A stretch of DNA of 64,000 bases from assembly GCA_016432465.1 (NCBI GenBank), contig CP066690.1:786724-850723 (forward strand), in the 5' to 3' direction. This DNA comes from Candidatus Sungiibacteriota bacterium. Its GTDB lineage: Bacteria; Patescibacteriota; Minisyncoccia; Sungbacterales; HO2-52-23. Below the pieces are notes generated by a model. That model worked only from the letters and a program-made list of their open reading frames with translations, was not told where the DNA came from and did no database searches. A program made the position numbers and the translations under genes. Shown here piece by piece: positions 28,610 to 39,100 of the stretch; the stretch's first letter is position 1; each line of letters opens with the position of its first letter.

Positions 28610-30370
28610 ATGACTCTTACCCCGATTGACGATATTAAAGGGCGTTTGGATATCGTGGATGTAATCCAGGGCTATGTCCGGCTTCAGAAGGCCGGGATAA
28701 ACTATAAGGCCCTGTGCCCATTTCACATGGAGAAGACACCGTCATTTTTTGTATCGCCTTCTCGTCAAATCTGGCACTGTTTTGGCGGATGCGGCAAAGG
28801 GGGGGACATTTTTAAATTTATAATGGAGATTGAAGGACTGGAATTTCCGGAGGCATTGCGGACGCTGGCGACTCGCGCGGGCGTGGTTTTAAAACGGGAA
28901 GACCCAGCCATACGCTCGGAGAAAAATAGATTACACGATCTCAACGAAGAAGCAACTAAAATTTTTGAAAGGAACCTTGTTCTTACTCCGGCAGTAAAGT
29001 TGTATCTCAAAAAGCGAGGGGTTGCCGACGAGACAATTCAAGGATTTCGTATTGGATTTGCGCCGCAGAGTTGGGATTTTTTACTGAAAGCCTTAACCGT
29101 TGGGGGATTTAAAAAAGAAGAAATTGAAAAAGCGGGCCTCGCCATAAGGTCAGAAGATGGGACTTCGTGGTACGACCGTTTTCGCTCACGGGTCATGTTT
29201 CCGATTAGTGATGCCAATGGCCGTGTGGTAGGTTTTAGCGGGAGAGTGTTTTCCGCCGAAGGCGGATCCGCCTCTGGCGGAGAGGCATCCAAAGCCGCGC
29301 AGATAGAGGCCAAATACGTAAACACGCCGCAAACCCTTCTTTACGATAAATCTCGTGTCCTCTATGGCTTTGAAAAGGCCAAAAACGAAATCCGCGCTAA
29401 AAATCAGGTGATCGTAGTTGAGGGCCAGATGGACTGTATCATGTCGCATCAGGCTGGAGTTAAAAACACTGTGGCTGTTTCCGGCACCGCCCTTACTCCT
29501 TACCAGTTAAAAATTTTACGTAGGCTTTGTGAGACCCTGATTAGCTCTTTTGACACAGATGCCGCGGGCGAGTCCGCTACTAAACGGTCGCTGGCTCTGG
29601 CTTCGCAATTTGAATTTGAAAGGAAAATTGCAGTGATACCTTCGGGCAAGGACCCGGCCGACACGGTGGCAGAAGATGCGGCCCTATGGAGAAGCGCCGT
29701 GGATGGGGCACGACCGGTAGTAGACTTTTATTTTGATAAAATGTTGCGGGAGCACGATCCTCGCACGGTTGACGGAAAAAAGAAAATTTCGGCGACGCTT
29801 CTGCCGTTGCTCTCGGAACTTGCTGGCGAAATAGAAAAAGCACATTGGGTAGGAGAACTTGCTAAACGCTTTGGGATCCGTGACGATGCTGTCTGGAACG
29901 AATTAAATAGGGTAAAAAGCGGACCACAGGAATACAGTGTTGATACCGCTCCCCGCAGTCGTATTCCAACGAGACGTGAACTTCTGGAGGAGAGATTGCT
30001 TACTCTTCTGACGCTTGTTAGTCAGGAGGTCCGCGATCGGGAATTGAGCGGCGGGAATGATTTCGTCTTTACCTCCGCTTTAAACGAGAGATTATTTGAA
30101 AACCTTAAGGAGAAGGCGACGGCCGTCAGCGATCTCTCCGGGCACCTAAACCTCTTACGGTTTAAGGGAGAAGTACTTGTCCAGATGACAAGCAATATTG
30201 AGGAAGAATTTGTGGTTTGCAAAAGAGAACTTGAAAAAGAGTGCATTAAGGAAAAACTCCTTAAGATAGGAGAGGAAATTGAGCGAAGTGAAAAAAGGGG
30301 GGATCACGTTGATGTTGTCTCGCTTCTGCAGGACTTTCAGGCCCTTTCCGGAAAGCTCAAAACTTTATAA
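28610..30370 (+). CDS. dnaG: DNA primase
   Basis: [11 protein letters not shown]...WHCFGCGKGGD zinc-binding motif, Toprim region EGQMD; 586 aa. Confidence 0.9.
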
Positions 30371-30375
30371 TTTCT

Positions 30376-31599
30376 ATGAATACAAAAAAATCAATAAAAA
30401 AGAAAGCAGCAGTTAAGGGTTATGAAAGAAAAAAGAACCGCGCTTCTATTTTGGTTAAGCAGGCGAAGATTAAAAGTCCGATTCCAACAAAAATCCAGCC
30501 AGGCCTAAAAAAAGTTGCCAAGGAGGTTGAGCAGAAAATCAAGGCGTTAATGGAACGGGGCAGGGGGCGCGGCTTCGTGACTTATGCTGAAATTCTTTAC
30601 TATTTCCCTACGATTGAGGAAGATATTTTGCTGCTGGAAGATCTTTATCAAAGGCTGGAACAGGGAAATATTGAAATTCTGGAGTCGCGGGAACTTCTGG
30701 GAGAAGCGGGTGAAGAAAAAGCCGTCGCTAAAAAAAGAAAGCGGGAGGAGGCCATTGACTTTGAGCAGTTATCGCAGGACTCGGTGCAGATGTATCTGCG
30801 CGAAATCGGCCGGATCACCCTACTTACCGGTGACGAGGAAAAAGACCTTGCCAAGCGTATTGAAAGGGGAGATGAGGAAGCGCGAAAAAAACTCACTCAA
30901 GCCAATTTGAGGTTGGTGGTTTCTATTGCCAAGCGCTACGTTGGCCGCTCGCCTCACCTGACGCTGCTTGATTTGATTCAGGAGGGAAATATCGGCCTTT
31001 TCAAGGCAGTAGAAAAATTTGATTACCGCCGCGGCTATAAGTTTTCTACTTATGCTACGTGGTGGATTAGACAGGCAATTACGCGTGCCTTGGCGGATCA
31101 GGCGCGAACCATACGGATCCCGGTGCACATGGTGGAAACAATTTCTAAATACCAGCAGGTCAAGCGCCGCCTTATTCAGGATTTGGGACGCGAGCCTTTA
31201 CCGGAAGAAATTGCGGCGGAGATGGGACTGGAATTGGAAAAGGTGCACCACATTGAAAGGATTGCGCAGGAAACGGTGTCTTTGGAAGCTCCGGTGGGAG
31301 ACGACGAGGAAGACTCGGTCTTGGGAGAGTTTATTGTTGATGAAAAAACGCTTTCCCCCGCGCAGTTTGCCGCGCGTCGTCTCCTTAAAGACCAGCTGAT
31401 TACGATTATCAAAGAGTTGACCCCACGCGAGCAGAAAATTTTGAGTATGCGTTTTGGTTTGGAGGATGGCATCACGCATACCCTTGAGGAAGTCGGTAGT
31501 GAGTTTGGTGTAACCCGCGAGCGCATCCGCCAAATTGAGGCCAAGTCCCTGGAGCGTATCAGACTACACGAGGCCTCCAGAAAACTTGAAGAATATTAA
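30376..31599 (+). CDS. rpoD: RNA polymerase sigma factor, primary (sigma-70 family)
   Basis: Region 2.4 [14 protein letters not shown], region 4 [22 protein letters not shown]; conserved dnaG-rpoD arrangement. Confidence 0.9.
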
Positions 31600-31827: not shown

Positions 31828-31900
31828 TCCGGTGTAGCTCAGTGGTAGAGCGGCTCCCTGTTAAGGAGACGGTCGCAGGTTCGAATCCTGCCACCGGAGC
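31828..31900 (+). tRNA. tRNA-Asn (anticodon GTT)
   Basis: TCCGGTG/CACCGGA acceptor, anticodon loop CTGTTAA, T-loop GGTTCGAATCC. Confidence 0.8.
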
Positions 31901-32306
31901 AAAGGGCGTGATTTGGGGTAGAAATCCCCGAATCGTGCCTTCACTGGGGGCTTTTCCGAGGTTCGAATATTATTTCGAGGTTCGGAGAGCTCCAACGCAT
32001 GATGAGAAAGTGTCATGAGCAATGCACCGCTAGGAATGGCGGTGTTTTGCTTTTGTTCGAATTTTTTCCATGCGGGGGTAAACTTTGCGAGTATTTCGAA
32101 GGCTTTGCTGTACTACAGTTCACAGTATTACGATGGCATAAACCTCACGCAGTTGAGGCCGCGAGTTGTTGCTTTCAAAACATATAAAACACACGACGGC
32201 ACTCTAATAGAGTTGTTTCAAGGAAACCGTGGGATGAGACCGGATCTCGATTTTGTTATAAAGATTTTTATCCCCGGGATATGGGAATAGATGAAAATTA
32301 GCAACC

Positions 32307-34315: not shown

Positions 34316-34402
34316 AAACGATTGACTCAGCGTACTTATTTTCTTACACTATCAGTATACCGAAGATTTGCCGAAGATGTAACAAGTGAGTTATCCACAG
34401 AC

Positions 34403-35347
34403 ATGGGAACAAAAACATCAAATCCAAAAAGACAGCATTATGTACCGGCCTGCTATTTAAGAGAATTTACTGATCCGCGAGACGGATTGCTTTGGATATT
34501 TAATAAAGACGGGAAAAATGTTCGTAGACAGAAACCAGAAAAAACTTTTACATCAAATCATCTCTACACGATAAAAATAAGTGGCACCAAGGACTACCGC
34601 ATCGAACAAACACTTTCGAATATTGAAGGTAACTACGCCGGTATATTTCAAAGTAAAATCAAGAAGAAACTCCTTCTAACAGACTACGAACACATTATTT
34701 TATGTGTTTTTGTTGCAGCCCAACTTCAAAGGACATTGCGCATGAAGAAGAATCATGAAAATTTCATCCAACAGATTATAGATCACGGCAAACAGCTATT
34801 AATGGTTCACGGTAAGAATACTAATTCTAAGCAAATACAAGAATGGGAATCGTATAAAAATGACATCCATAAACTTCAGTTGTTAGATGGGTTGCCCTTT
34901 TTAACTAAAATTTTGCATCAGATGAGTGTTGCGTTTGTATGCTCGGCAAATCCTCAAAAACACTGGTTCATTACATCTGATGATCCATGCACTCTTTTCA
35001 ACCCAGATTTACAATGGCAGCGTTTTTATGGCCCGGGTTTTGGACAGAAGAATGTGCAACTAACGATGCCTCTATCGCCGGAAATAACTGTTTTCTTTTG
35101 CTGGGCTAATTATCATGGCTATTCACTTGCTGACGGCTATACGGTGGAAGAAATGATGAATAGGATGACGCGCGGGCACTGTCACAAAGAATTTGTATCT
35201 CCATTTGGCAATAAAAAATGGATATGGTTTAGTAGGATTCCTTTGGACCCGATATTTCTAATCAAAGTGTTAAAAACACGGCTTCGCTTTTTCTTGCATG
35301 ATGTAAAAATAAAGTGGAGGCGGCGTAAGTGCAAACGATATGAATGA
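34403..35347 (+). CDS. DUF4238-like protein
   Basis: N-terminal QHYVPACYLREF and C-terminal WFITSDDPCTLF match the two DUF4238 signature blocks as I recall them. Start MGTKTSN is preferred over the upstream alternative at 34322. Confidence 0.5.
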   Translation: MGTKTSNPKRQHYVPACYLREFTDPRDGLLWIFNKDGKNVRRQKPEKTFTSNHLYTIKISGTKDYRIEQTLSNIEGNYAGIFQSKIKKKLLLTDYEHIILCVFVAAQLQRTLRMKKNHENFIQQIIDHGKQLLMVHGKNTNSKQIQEWESYKNDIHKLQLLDGLPFLTKILHQMSVAFVCSANPQKHWFITSDDPCTLFNPDLQWQRFYGPGFGQKNVQLTMPLSPEITVFFCWANYHGYSLADGYTVEEMMNRMTRGHCHKEFVSPFGNKKWIWFSRIPLDPIFLIKVLKTRLRFFLHDVKIKWRRRKCKRYE

Positions 35348-37082
35348 TCTAGTCGAAAAAATTAAAGAAGTAGAGGCATCTTCGTTATCTGACGCAGAAA
35401 AGCTACAGCAGTTTGTAAATTTCATGGTCTCGCTTAAACCCGTTGATAATTCAGCGGCTTTAGTATTAGCTTGCACCTACGGAATATCTTCTGCGCAGAG
35501 ATTAGGTAGGTCAGAGATGGAAGCGCAATTTTATATAACTAGGGCTAAAGTATTCATTATGCAAACTGGTACTCTGATCCATGAGATGAAAAATATTACT
35601 TTAGCACCGCACTGGTTTCAGTTTGCTCTTGAGTCAGAAAAGAAAAGGTATGCCGAACTGGATATGCAAGTCAAAAAAATCTGGAGCGATGTTCAAGCTG
35701 ATATAGAAAAAGCATTTGAGGCGATCAATAAAAATCGTATCGCTGGTGCCGTTGCCTTCGTCTTAAAAACTACTGGTGAAGTTTATGGTCAATACTATTT
35801 ACAACTCAGGTTGTACTGTTTTAAATCAAAGTCGCCGTTTCATGCTCGGTTAGCAAACATGAAAATTTTTCGATGGATTGGGGCCGATGATTTTTTCGTT
35901 CTCAGTAAGGAGGCTAGAGGTAAACTTAAAACTGTGAAAAATGATTGTTTAACAAACCTATATAAAGCGATTGCTCTTTTTAAGCAACATAAGAATTACG
36001 ACTACCTGGCTGACGCCCTGCTTGCTCTTTCAACAGAATATCGTTCTTTCCAAAGTCCAATAAGGTCAAGATTTTATCTTACTCAAGCGGAAAGACTGAT
36101 AAAAAAGCATAAACTAACAGAACTTGAAGGCAACTTAGCTCTTATGAAGCGATGGGAGCCATTTAGTAACTATAATCCTAAAAATTTTATGGACATTAAC
36201 AGACTTGTAGAAGCTAATACTGCGTTTAGGAGGTTTGAAAAGGAGCTCTCTGGGTTTAGCGTCTCCGACAATAAAGCAAATAAATTTATGTCTTTGCTGT
36301 TAAGCTCTCTTGAATCTTTTGAGCTTGTTTCTACCCGTTACGCAAATATTAGAAACAAAATACAAGATATACACAAAGAAGAATGGGCGCAGAGAAAAGC
36401 AAATCCAGAAAGAAAATCATGGCCCGCACATCCTGATGAAAAATACTCCTACGCCGCCGTACGAGTAGATGCTGAATCTCTTTTTATATTTGGAATAATC
36501 ATGGTTCGCAGGACCCTCCCATTGATAGAATTGTTTATTCTCGATAAGCCACCGGCTAAAACATTCGAAGATTTGAGCAATTTCTATAGTTGGATTTCAA
36601 CTACCCCGAACCCATCAAAACTAACTGCTGATTTAAGAAATGATTTCGGTCATCATTTCAGATGGCTTTATGCGGTACTAAGATTTTACAGAAATAGATT
36701 TGTTGAGCATCTCAGTGAACCGCGACAACAAGGAATGAACTTTGATTTGGGAGGGAAAAAATTTGCATTACACTCCTATAAGTGGAATTTTAATGCGAAT
36801 GACGAAAAAGCTATTTTGGATTTTAAGAATAAACTGGAAAAAAGAGGTATAACGATACCAAATGAACATAATCCACGACATTATGTACAACTGGTTTTTG
36901 ATAACTTGGATCAGGTTCCCGAAGATTTTCTGCAGGACGCACTAAGATTAATTGATGATATCGGGATAGATTCGCCGTCACCAACAACTTTAATAAATCA
37001 CATTGAGGCGTATCTTCGGGATTTATTTAATTTTATGAGTGATCGTATTGGAGACAGCCACTTGGCTCAATACCGCAAATAA
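35340..37082 (+). CDS. Large hypothetical protein (580 aa, predicted helical)
   Basis: 8-bp overlap with the preceding gene (operon); no motif recognised. Confidence 0.4.
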   Translation: MNDLVEKIKEVEASSLSDAEKLQQFVNFMVSLKPVDNSAALVLACTYGISSAQRLGRSEMEAQFYITRAKVFIMQTGTLIHEMKNITLAPHWFQFALESEKKRYAELDMQVKKIWSDVQADIEKAFEAINKNRIAGAVAFVLKTTGEVYGQYYLQLRLYCFKSKSPFHARLANMKIFRWIGADDFFVLSKEARGKLKTVKNDCLTNLYKAIALFKQHKNYDYLADALLALSTEYRSFQSPIRSRFYLTQAERLIKKHKLTELEGNLALMKRWEPFSNYNPKNFMDINRLVEANTAFRRFEKELSGFSVSDNKANKFMSLLLSSLESFELVSTRYANIRNKIQDIHKEEWAQRKANPERKSWPAHPDEKYSYAAVRVDAESLFIFGIIMVRRTLPLIELFILDKPPAKTFEDLSNFYSWISTTPNPSKLTADLRNDFGHHFRWLYAVLRFYRNRFVEHLSEPRQQGMNFDLGGKKFALHSYKWNFNANDEKAILDFKNKLEKRGITIPNEHNPRHYVQLVFDNLDQVPEDFLQDALRLIDDIGIDSPSPTTLINHIEAYLRDLFNFMSDRIGDSHLAQYRK

Positions 37083-37103
37083 TCTTTTTTAATTACAAAT
37101 ATT

Positions 37104-37589
37104 ATGGCCGCAGGATGGGTACATGCATCGATGGATTTAATGGCGTTTGGACGCAGTTATTTTGATTTGCATAAATACAAAGATCATCCTTGGAGAGAGT
37201 TGGGATATAAGCATAGGCAAATAAATCACGATTGGTATAAAGAATTCGGTAAAAGCTGGAATTTCAATGAACCATTCCCCCCAATAATTCACATGAGAAC
37301 TGATGCTATAGAGAATCCAGATGAGGCGGAACAATTTCAATCGTGGACTTCACACGATTATTTGGATCGTATCTGGGATACTCTTGATTTTGAACGGCGG
37401 AGAAGTTTTGAGCTGGCTTGCAAATGGTTTTTGGAAAACCCCGAAGAACTGAATCGAGTTTACGAAATCGATGTTTTTAGAGGTTTAATTTTCCGTGTTA
37501 TTGACGGAAAAGAAGTAACTGAGAATTGTCCTGAACTCGTCAAAGAATATCAGCGTCTCCGTAGCTATGTGGCAAGGATTAATTTGTAA
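37104..37589 (+). CDS. Hypothetical protein (161 aa), third gene of DUF4238 operon
   Basis: Co-directional, 21 bp after the preceding gene. Confidence 0.35.
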   Translation: MAAGWVHASMDLMAFGRSYFDLHKYKDHPWRELGYKHRQINHDWYKEFGKSWNFNEPFPPIIHMRTDAIENPDEAEQFQSWTSHDYLDRIWDTLDFERRRSFELACKWFLENPEELNRVYEIDVFRGLIFRVIDGKEVTENCPELVKEYQRLRSYVARINL

Positions 37590-37855
37590 ACTTCTTAAGC
37601 TCGTCTAATTCGGGTCAATCTGGTGCCAGTGGTACAAAGCTCTGACCCGGGGTTAATCGCTCGCCACAGGGGCACACAGCTCGTAATTCGCGGTGTTTCT
37701 ACCAGTAGTTCACGATCTTAAACGGAGAAATGTTGCCGGGAATCTGCCAAATAGCGGTTCTAAATGCGTGAAGCGCGCGGAGCAAGATATAGGTAGCGGA
37801 TGGCAAATAAATCTGTTTCTGTGTACAACTCTGGATTTTTCTTGGGATAATTGAT

Positions 37856-39100
37856 ATGGTAACAGTAATGAGGTTTACGCCTAAAAAAATTACACTATTG
37901 ATTGCGGGAGCAGTGTTTACTGCCGGACTTGCAGTGGGCTTTGTTATTCCTGTTTTTGCGGCTGATGATTACAACAGCTCAAGGTCAAATACCTCAATAT
38001 CAGTAGTAAACATACCAATAGCAAACAAACACGTTGGAGATATTCTTTTGCGCTACGGCGCGGGCGGCGCGGAGATCAACGAGGTGACGGACGCTCTTGC
38101 TCGAGGTATTAGCACAGCTGACCTCAAGGCAATGCTGGTTAAGTTTGGTGTAAGCGATACGGGCATTGAGGCGGTCTTTACAAAACTTGATGAGCTTGGG
38201 GCTGGAGCTGATTCTCCCGAAAAAGAATTTACAACAGGAGGGGCGGTTTCTGCTCCTGCCGCGGGGAAAACACCGCAACCAGCAGCAGTAAATCGAGAAG
38301 TTAAGCGAATGAGTGGCAAAGTTTCTGCTCCTAATACACAAGACGATCCAAGACGAGGCAAGGGAAGCGTCAATTTTATAAATAAACCAGACAGAGGCGC
38401 ATTTCACGATACGCAGCAGGAAATTCTTGCAGAGTTTGATAGGTACGAAGAAGGCAAAAGCGTAAGAGAAAAAACAGATAAAATAGAAAAACTCCGAGCC
38501 AACCGCGAAGCATTTCAAACAGAAATAATATCTGTGAATTTAACTATTCGCGAAAACGCAAAAGCGCTTCGCGATAATTTCCGAGAAAATGTAAAAACAA
38601 CAATAGGCCACGTGGACCACGGAAAGACGGCGCGCATTGCCGTTGCCCACGGCAAAGGACTGCGCATGCTCAATCGTTACCGTTCAGCCATGGTCCGGTT
38701 TGACCATATTTTAAGCCGGCTGGAATCGCGTATTGAAAAAATGAGAATTGAATTTGAAGCTGAAGAGCGAGCAAAAACCGGCTCTGTAAATAATACATTT
38801 CCGCCACGCAACATGGCTATTCTTATTGAGAAAGCCAAAAATATGAGCGTTGAAAACGAGGCAAAGATGGAAGAACTTAAGGCAAAATATGAATCCCTGC
38901 TTTTGGGCGAAAATGCAAAGGGAGTCTTAGCCAAATTGACCATCGTTCCTGAAAAAGGGGAGGAAGCCCGCGCGCTCGCCGCAGAACTGAAAACAGACAT
39001 AGAAAACCTCCGCGCCATAATTATTGAGATATATACGCAAGGAGCCGGCTACCGCGGCGGCGTCGATTTCAACAGTTCCAGATCAAATACCAGTATATAA
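37856..39100 (+). CDS. Membrane-anchored/secreted coiled-coil protein with NSSRSNTSI motif at both termini
   Basis: N-terminal TM/signal (LLIAGAVFTAGLAVGFVIPVFA), a long charged helical middle, and the nonapeptide NSSRSNTSI at residues ~40 and at the extreme C-terminus. Confidence 0.4.
   Translation: MVTVMRFTPKKITLLIAGAVFTAGLAVGFVIPVFAADDYNSSRSNTSISVVNIPIANKHVGDILLRYGAGGAEINEVTDALARGISTADLKAMLVKFGVSDTGIEAVFTKLDELGAGADSPEKEFTTGGAVSAPAAGKTPQPAAVNREVKRMSGKVSAPNTQDDPRRGKGSVNFINKPDRGAFHDTQQEILAEFDRYEEGKSVREKTDKIEKLRANREAFQTEIISVNLTIRENAKALRDNFRENVKTTIGHVDHGKTARIAVAHGKGLRMLNRYRSAMVRFDHILSRLESRIEKMRIEFEAEERAKTGSVNNTFPPRNMAILIEKAKNMSVENEAKMEELKAKYESLLLGENAKGVLAKLTIVPEKGEEARALAAELKTDIENLRAIIIEIYTQGAGYRGGVDFNSSRSNTSI

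Follow-up and report, generated by a model that had tools for sequence, protein, structure and literature searches.

Does the three-gene operon that lies beside a restriction-modification (R-M) pair in a Candidatus Sungiibacteriota bacterium form one dedicated anti-phage system, or is its conserved unit a smaller one? We addressed this question for a stretch of 64,000 nucleotides (nt), hereafter the window (contig CP066690.1 of assembly GCA_016432465.1, positions 786,724 to 850,723, forward strand). An initial annotation, made from the sequence alone, had described three tightly packed, co-directional open reading frames (ORFs) of 314, 580 and 161 amino acids (aa) in a tRNA-adjacent, AT-rich island. 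Coordinates and spacing proved correct (Table 1), with an 8-nt overlap between genes 1 and 2 (ATGAATGA) and a 21-nt gap between genes 2 and 3, and the island is borne out by a tRNA-Asn gene at its left boundary and by a GC content of 0.37-0.42 across 32-38 kb against about 0.45-0.51 in its flanks. The ratio of nonsynonymous to synonymous substitution rates (dN/dS) is about 0.07-0.11 in every module of the operon, which indicates purifying selection, and these are therefore real, functional genes.

Gene 1 encodes a DUF4238 protein, as initially proposed. It scores 107 bits on the Pfam DUF4238 model (PF14022), whose cutoff is 27 (E 1.5e-30; residues 10-230 on positions 1-235 of 281), and contains both signature blocks, QHYVPACYLREF and FITSDDPCTLF, which hardly vary in an alignment of 38 subfamily members. 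The 240 relatives of gene 1 carry names from the candidate phyla radiation (CPR) wherever the source supplies one. Its own dN/dS is 0.07, and a search for relatives of DUF4238 among solved structures gave noise only. The longest ORF begins at an alternative TTG (34322) and would give 341 aa; this extension covers the conserved promoter and leader region described below, and the ATG start gives the 314 aa used here.

The companions of gene 1 were determined in 80 metagenomic loci, fetched with the DUF4238 subfamily as anchor and searched with hidden Markov models (HMMs) built from our own alignments; genes in these loci are longest-ORF calls, and individual loci are cited by L numbers. A gene of the family of the N-terminal module of gene 2, module A, directly follows DUF4238, overlapping or near-abutting, at 78 of the 85 loci; the seven without it break off no more than about 310 nt from DUF4238. 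The C-terminal module of gene 2, module B, is limited to four lineages (the window, L025, L030 and L009). Among these loci, gene 3 is limited to the window, L009 and L024, the last a fragment at a contig end; elsewhere, the gene that follows A varies and mostly lacks annotation. Because A follows so regularly and the accessories vary, sequence comparison identifies the conserved unit as a mobile two-gene module, DUF4238 plus A, which picks up different accessories.

The initial annotation had treated all three genes as one unit. A dedicated three-component defence system would agree with their tight spacing on one strand with no terminator-like site between them, with the occurrence of the same three ORFs together in independent assemblies of this strain, and with the adjacency of B and gene 3 in L009 too. 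Such a system is nevertheless very improbable, as gene 3 is missing from the other 84 DUF4238-A loci and B from most pairs. Moreover, homologues of gene 3 follow unrelated cargos, one of them stands amid metabolic genes, and the distant ones occupy housekeeping contexts. The trio was thus abandoned as a conserved unit: DUF4238 and A alone travel together, and B is an accessory.

Gene 2 itself is, by comparison with the sequences of related loci, a fusion of two ancestral genes. An exhaustive HMMER scan returned 122 cluster representatives, of which 77 are confined to residues 1 to about 275 and 44 to residues about 284-580. In L025, whose DUF4238 protein is 91% identical, A and B are adjacent genes in the same frame (275 and 302 aa), and the two are separate also in L030 and L009. 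The L025 junction reads CCA TTT TAA, with an ATG 21 nt on. In the window, one T has been lost from the T-run at 36162-36164, and with it the ancestral TAA stop of A; one A has been gained in the A-run at 36180-36184, which restores the frame of B. The exact 580-aa protein with the identical junction recurs in independent contig assemblies of at least four sequencing runs, and the fusion is therefore real. An AlphaFold2 model of gene 2 (predicted local distance difference test, pLDDT, 85.7) contains two domains, with values below 50 at residues 276-284.

The initial description of the 580-aa protein as lacking any recognisable motif holds for profile libraries, since Pfam, PADLOC, NCBIfam and PHROG gave no match; it does not hold for structure and alignment, which show a TPR domain and an R-x5-H motif. 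Its status as an orphan, based on an empty word-indexed protein search, was overturned by its HMMER relatives, by tblastn on the loci and by the exact-sequence match; for low-complexity helical proteins, a null result of such a search is unreliable on its own. In the predicted structure, module A forms a right-handed superhelix of paired antiparallel helices, like solved TPR domains. Among TPR profiles, TPR_12 matches six of the 42 members of a combined A/B alignment, and the A module of the window gives no match. Pfam and the model place no nucleoside triphosphatase (NTPase) or helix-turn-helix (HTH) domain in A or elsewhere in gene 2.

Module B is characterised by a Y450-R451-N452-x-F454-V455-x-H457 block, followed by Q...G, in which the arginine and the histidine are invariant across 44 clusters at 50% identity. 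The family consensus is Y-R-[ND]-x-F-[IV]-x-H...Q-x-G, and in model and alignment a beta-hairpin follows the motif in the otherwise all-helical domain. This R451-x5-H457 dyad, with N or D after the arginine, resembles that of HEPN ribonucleases (RNases), and B may by analogy be called HEPN-like. HEPN families are absent from the Pfam matches of 17 B members at E<=5, hhalign gave a probability below 1% for B against the neighbouring AbiU2 proteins, and neither a profile search of the PDB nor a comparison of the B fold with a viral structure library returned a relative. When the gene 2 model was used for a structure search, TPR matches filled the list. That B is an RNase is possible, at somewhat less than an even chance.

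Elsewhere, B occurs as separate genes of about 300 aa or as the C-terminal module of proteins of about 600 aa with another helical N-domain, and judging from these relatives it behaves as a portable module. The different N-domain rules out that the latter proteins are A-B or DUF5677-B fusions. None of the third-position genes downstream of A at other loci is a remote B homologue. A scan of IMG/VR viral contigs returned no relatives of B, whose alignment is too divergent for pattern scanning.

The surroundings of the pair were sampled as 149 flanking proteins from 69 non-redundant loci, counted raw and with no background control. Large serine recombinases are the most frequent neighbours (13 ORFs in 12 of the 69 loci), often convergent right after A; others include about eight DNA methylases or R-M genes, three HEPN_AbiU2 proteins, two to three LexA-family proteins and, in other loci, two DinB_2 proteins. 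In the lineages of L071 and L084, a genuine HEPN_AbiU2 gene immediately precedes DUF4238 and is co-directional with it. Their compact cassette (L084:7326-12118 and L071:1717-5365) comprises HEPN_AbiU2, DUF4238, the TPR partner, a 228-aa protein without assignment and, in convergent orientation, a large serine recombinase, and resembles a minimal mobile element with the DUF4238 pair and accessories as cargo.

Such elements bring to mind a toxin-antitoxin-like addiction module, with DUF4238 as toxin and the TPR protein to neutralise it, which would serve mainly to stabilise small mobile elements such as serine-recombinase cassettes and R-M islands rather than to stop phage. The strict two-gene, translationally coupled layout would suit this role, as would the frequent convergent recombinase, which makes the pair look like the sole cargo of a minimal element, the adjoining R-M genes, which are themselves an addiction system, and the absence of the pair from IMG/VR viral contigs. 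We nonetheless consider it unlikely: both proteins are about 300 aa, large for a classical type II toxin-antitoxin system, neither contains an antitoxin-type DNA-binding domain by Pfam, and DUF4238 alone protects E. coli from T7 (PMC9122126). Addiction and abortive-infection defence are, moreover, not mutually exclusive.

How the pair came to lie between its present neighbours can be read from a DNA mosaic. The window shares with L009 the LexA part of the methylase gene on its left, the leader, B and gene 3; with L025 everything from LexA through B; and with L024, a contig of a metagenome-assembled genome, only the leader and gene 3, at 89-94% identity. Breakpoints coincide with the first start codon or lie immediately ahead of gene 3. 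Sequence similarity, in the form of this one contig and the CPR names among DUF4238 relatives, would suggest a CPR-type, probably Saccharibacteria-like host. Because the mosaic breaks exactly between leader and gene 3, cargo is swapped at this position, and the locus is a swappable cargo slot, bounded on the left by a LexA-S24-methyltransferase gene with its leader and on the right by gene 3. Slot copies in L003 and L005 are near terminase genes. The slot of L005 and L006 adjoins terminase and ParB-methylase genes, and thus the slot is also found inside a phage-like element; a Pfam scan of the window's proteins found no phage genes in its own island. At L005:5922-9588 and L006:841-4480, the gene order is stand-alone LexA, ThsB-type TIR, 8xMP, gene 3 homologue, a 366-aa protein without assignment and HNH_5.

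Gene 3, the right flank of the slot, has no match in Pfam, PADLOC, NCBIfam or PHROG, and its confident predicted model matched no solved structure. It has 36 homologous clusters, whose full-length members are mostly 60-91% identical, with nine invariant residues (H7, H23, D27, H37, H42, E76, H84, D85 and D88). Gene 3 and module B represent conserved families without a solved or annotated relative. Close homologues of gene 3 (72-83%) end unrelated cassettes, with at least six cargos in all: a Type I R-M system with DUF4268 and further unassigned genes (L001), PIN_12, ResIII and a 1216-aa protein (L003), ThsB-TIR with 8xMP (L005/L006), a DUF5677-like gene with B (L009) and a single 1248-aa protein (L024). 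One homologue of 72% identity stands amid metabolic genes (L116), and those of 40-47% identity occur in many bacterial and archaeal phyla in housekeeping contexts. Large proteins without a Pfam match lie upstream of gene 3 at L003:4279-7929, L114:1243-4839 and L024:95-3841 (1198-1248 aa). The 1216-aa protein of L003 and the 1198-aa protein of L114 are homologous; that of L024 belongs to a different family and sits behind the leader that it shares with the cargo of the window.

Gene 3 is always the last gene on its strand, 3-25 nt after these very different cargos. This position, the high identity of its homologues together with a dN/dS of about 0.1, the His/Asp constellation, which could suggest catalysis, and the variation of both flanks between loci, which speaks against simple host core synteny, might all be expected if gene 3 were a common functional partner of every cargo, so that the unit would be a variable sensor cassette plus gene 3. 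We regard this as quite unlikely, as no defence-like cassette adjoins the homologue in L116 or the distant homologues, DUF4238-A stands without gene 3 in about 84 loci, and Type I R-M and ThsB-TIR need no such partner. Gene 3 is a conserved flank of the slot and not specific to DUF4238, and its membership in the DUF4238 system is unlikely.

The left flank bears on the regulation of the operon. The initial annotation had placed the operon beside an R-M system, which is correct insofar as the minus strand carries a methyltransferase gene and a neighbour with a PD...EMK motif; the methylase, however, is a LexA-S24-methyltransferase fusion and probably regulates the operon. The putative endonuclease matches PDDEXK_11 at E 7.6e-4 and 19.7 bits, below the cutoff of 23.7, and the equivalent neighbour in related loci is a BglII-type or REase_II enzyme. 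The 493-aa fusion matches LexA_DNA_bind (4.8e-15), Peptidase_S24 (2.7e-29) and N6_N4_Mtase (6.2e-58) in Pfam, TIGR00498 lexA (185.8 bits, cutoff 110.95; 7e-55) and PADLOC MTase_II (3e-98). It carries A86-G87, S121 in GNSM and K159 in TLKKF, which we take to be the cleavage site and the Ser/Lys dyad by analogy with A84-G85, S119 and K156 of E. coli LexA. The same architecture occurs at 39-45% identity in L009, L025 and L026, where it flanks DUF4238 or B cassettes. Among phage records, 553 match the fusion, and none of them covers 80% or more of the query.

Between the fusion gene and gene 1 lies a leader of 87 nt that is conserved across related loci. Its plus-strand promoter-like site is conserved in L009 and present as a variant in L025; promoter assignments are consensus matches, and the number of sites in the scan did not exceed that in shuffled sequence. 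Just downstream of this site lies the tandem repeat (CGAARAT-N4-CGAARAT in general form), which is conserved in the window, L009, L024, L025, L026 and L030. Read on the lexA strand as CTTC-N7-CTTC, it falls into the -35/-10 spacer of a minus-strand promoter, GTTACA...TATACT (34383..34354). In L026, about 530 nt separate the lexA-methyltransferase gene from DUF4238, and each of the two has a copy of the repeat in front of it. A direct repeat of the same spacing, GTTC-N7-GTTC, is the SOS box of Caulobacter (PMC9578287). A palindromic LexA box was sought in the leader and rejected, with only the direct repeat and a GTATAC hexamer present. Directly before gene 1, the 9-mer TTATCCACA is identical to the DnaA-box consensus; it recurs at the same place in L009:3168, L024:70, L025:5464, L026:5246 and L030:63, and its reverse complement TGTGGATAA lies upstream of the stand-alone lexA in L005:5886 and L006:778. 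Its orientation relative to the lexA gene is fixed in all these loci. LexA-type control of the operon seems to us evenly balanced between likely and unlikely.

A LexA-regulated operon could also be a DNA-damage or stress cassette with no phage role, with the R-M methylase doubling as the LexA of the cell. The fusion is indeed the only LexA homologue in the 64 kb of the window, to which the LexA search was confined, an SOS-box-like operator is common to both promoters, and DinB_2 proteins are among the neighbours elsewhere. Behind the same leader, however, other strains carry classic defence genes, and DUF4238 has validated anti-phage activity (PMC9122126), which makes a pure stress cassette very unlikely.

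We therefore prefer to read the locus as a LexA-gated, mobile two-gene variant of DUF4238 with a TPR protein as sensor or adaptor and, optionally, a tethered effector. This mechanism is inferred, and for this composite reading the chances appear even; a defence or exclusion role of the DUF4238-A pair as such is somewhat more probable than its absence. The two proteins would be translationally coupled and form a complex, in which the TPR domain may act as sensor or adaptor for a protein or peptide of a phage or other invader and thereby control a toxic or interfering activity of DUF4238, with abortive infection or exclusion as the outcome. Because A and B are fused in the window, Rosetta-stone evidence suggests that the two act together physically. 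B would be an RNase effector of HEPN-like type, tethered to A. Within the methylase, the LexA-like N-domain would bind the tandem CGAARAT repeats common to the divergent promoters and keep the operon low. RecA-stimulated autocleavage at A86-G87, for example upon DNA damage during infection or restriction, could then detach the LexA domain and derepress the operon. Gene 3 would be co-transcribed and functionally separate.

An anti-phage role, as proposed initially, is plausible through validated precedents. In E. coli, a DUF4238 gene from a P2 prophage hotspot blocks T7 as a single gene with no partner (PMC9122126), and DUF4238 is among the extra domains of validated TIR defence systems (PMC11350192). 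By analogy with these, the pair is a candidate for such a role. The claimed defence neighbourhood holds in part: recombinases, methylases and AbiU2 do accompany the pair. Several observations weigh against our interpretation. Many flanks of the pair in the 69 loci are scattered housekeeping genes. The PADLOC DUF4238-Pers HMM matches gene 1 only partially, at residues 162-228 (30.8 bits, E 5e-8), and phrog_29785 matches the same partial stretch. The sole match to gene 1 in phage records, by tblastn, is 28% identical, none comes from P2-like phages, and scans of IMG/VR viral contigs gave no relatives of gene 3 or DUF4238. The candidate operator is a direct repeat instead of the usual palindrome, and one copy of it in the window is by itself not significant. 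Finally, the mechanism of DUF4238 is still unclassified (10.1101/2024.10.26.620412).

Members of the CPR are poorly charted with respect to immunity, and the DUF4238 family is here extended into these bacteria. The obligate TPR partner, the recruits of HEPN type or with an R-x5-H motif and the one fused lineage offer handles on how DUF4238 systems might sense, act and make contact. A broader proposal, which we advance tentatively and do not expect to hold in full, is that of a damage-gated immune slot in CPR-type bacteria, in which the LexA-methyltransferase would hold a swappable second-line cassette silent until activation by RecA, for instance in response to DNA ends generated by restriction or by phage. 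Its cargos would be DUF4238-TPR(-B) here and TIR-8xMP, giant proteins of 1200 aa or a DUF5677-like protein with B elsewhere. DUF4238-TPR would then be an undescribed two-component form, and B and gene 3 new families.

Table 1. Features of the low-GC island and its left border (window coordinates)
Feature	Position	Strand	Basis or remark
dnaG	28610-30370		Pfam; just upstream of tRNA-Asn
rpoD	30376-31599		Pfam; just upstream of tRNA-Asn
tRNA-Asn (GTT)	31828..31900	+	ARAGORN and Rfam; left boundary of low-GC island
Putative Type II restriction endonuclease, 173 aa	32307..32828	-	PD...EMK motif PDEALYVIVNNTLFIIEMK; weak PDDEXK_11
LexA winged-helix, S24 autopeptidase and N6/N4 methyltransferase fusion, 493 aa	32834..34315	-	Pfam, TIGR
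Promoter-like site TTGACT-17-TACACT, cargo operon	34322..34350	+	Consensus scan
Tandem direct repeat CGAAGAT-N4-CGAAGAT, 11-bp period	34361..34378	.	Candidate operator
TTATCCACA 9-mer	34391..34399	+	Identical to DnaA-box consensus; directly before gene 1 start
Gene 1, DUF4238 protein, 314 aa	34403..35347	+	Pfam PF14022; core component 1
Gene 2, 580 aa	35340..37082	+	ORF call
Module A, TPR-fold partner, gene 2 residues 1-275	35340..36164	+	Core component 2; start overlaps DUF4238 stop
Fusion junction, linker SNYNPKNF, residues 276-283	36162..36188	+	DNA alignment with L025
Module B, accessory helical domain, gene 2 residues 284-580	36189..37082	+	Candidate RNase effector
Gene 3, 161-aa His/Asp-rich protein	37104..37589	+	Conserved right-flank gene of cargo slot

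Downstream of tRNA-Asn, no att-like repeat of its end was found in the island or in the spacer after gene 3. A 91-aa ORF between tRNA-Asn and the endonuclease gene (32015-32290, plus strand) has a terminator-like hairpin within its start (32024-32045) and no family match; it is perhaps not a gene. At the right edge of the island, a GC-rich non-coding spacer of 266 nt directly follows gene 3 (37590-37855); neither this spacer nor the island contains an Rfam family. Beyond it, a 414-aa protein (37856-39100, plus strand) has a hydrophobic N-terminal segment, a coiled-coil-like middle and the peptide NSSRSNTSI near its N-terminus and again near its C-terminus, with no Pfam or PHROG match.

Among known systems, Rst_DUF4238 of DefenseFinder, or DUF4238-Pers of PADLOC (Rousset et al. 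2022, PMC9122126), is the closest to the pair, sharing the PF14022 domain, both signature blocks and a variable hotspot beside defence genes. It differs in that its HMM covers only the short stretch of gene 1 noted above, and in that it is defined as a single gene, whereas a TPR partner always follows here. The window gene is, furthermore, chromosomal in a CPR-type bacterium and lies beside a LexA-methylase, not in a P2 prophage. By its sequence, DUF4238-A is thus a variant of the DUF4238 defence family, neither a member of Rst_DUF4238 nor a categorically new system. The TIR systems of E. coli that contain DUF4238 (PMC11350192) join this domain to a distinct effector-type domain, much as B or AbiU2 accompanies DUF4238-A. 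Their effector is a TIR NADase; here it would be an R-x5-H module or HEPN_AbiU2, always with the TPR partner, and most pairs have no recognisable extra effector. The slot as a whole recalls the P2/P4 hotspots (PMC9122126) and the island hotspots of Pseudomonas (PMC12629846), which likewise have conserved flanks and cargos swapped at gene boundaries. In our case, the flanks are a LexA-fused methylase and the His/Asp-rich gene 3, the host is of CPR type and the island is free of recognised phage genes.

At the level of single modules, A is comparable to the TPR sensor modules of Avs/STAND proteins and of the RRNPP regulators Rap, PlcR, NprR and ComR. It differs from them in having no NTPase or HTH domain, and its partner is DUF4238, not a nuclease or protease. 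Module B resembles the HEPN RNases of abortive-infection systems (AbiU2, Abi_2/AbiD-F, MNT-HEPN) in its invariant R-N/D-x4-H dyad within a predicted all-helical domain, but has no HEPN profile match, is about 300 aa long and has a beta-hairpin following this dyad. Regulated Type II R-M systems use C-protein control or methyltransferases with an N-terminal HTH, such as M.SsoII. Like the latter, the window's methylase bears a DNA-binding domain and is placed to autoregulate its own promoter. Unlike M.SsoII-type enzymes, it contains a complete LexA with S24 peptidase, which would make control responsive to RecA and DNA damage, and its operator also faces a swappable cargo. This combination of a LexA-methyltransferase fusion and a shared operator suggests a direct wiring of R-M, SOS response and second-line defence.

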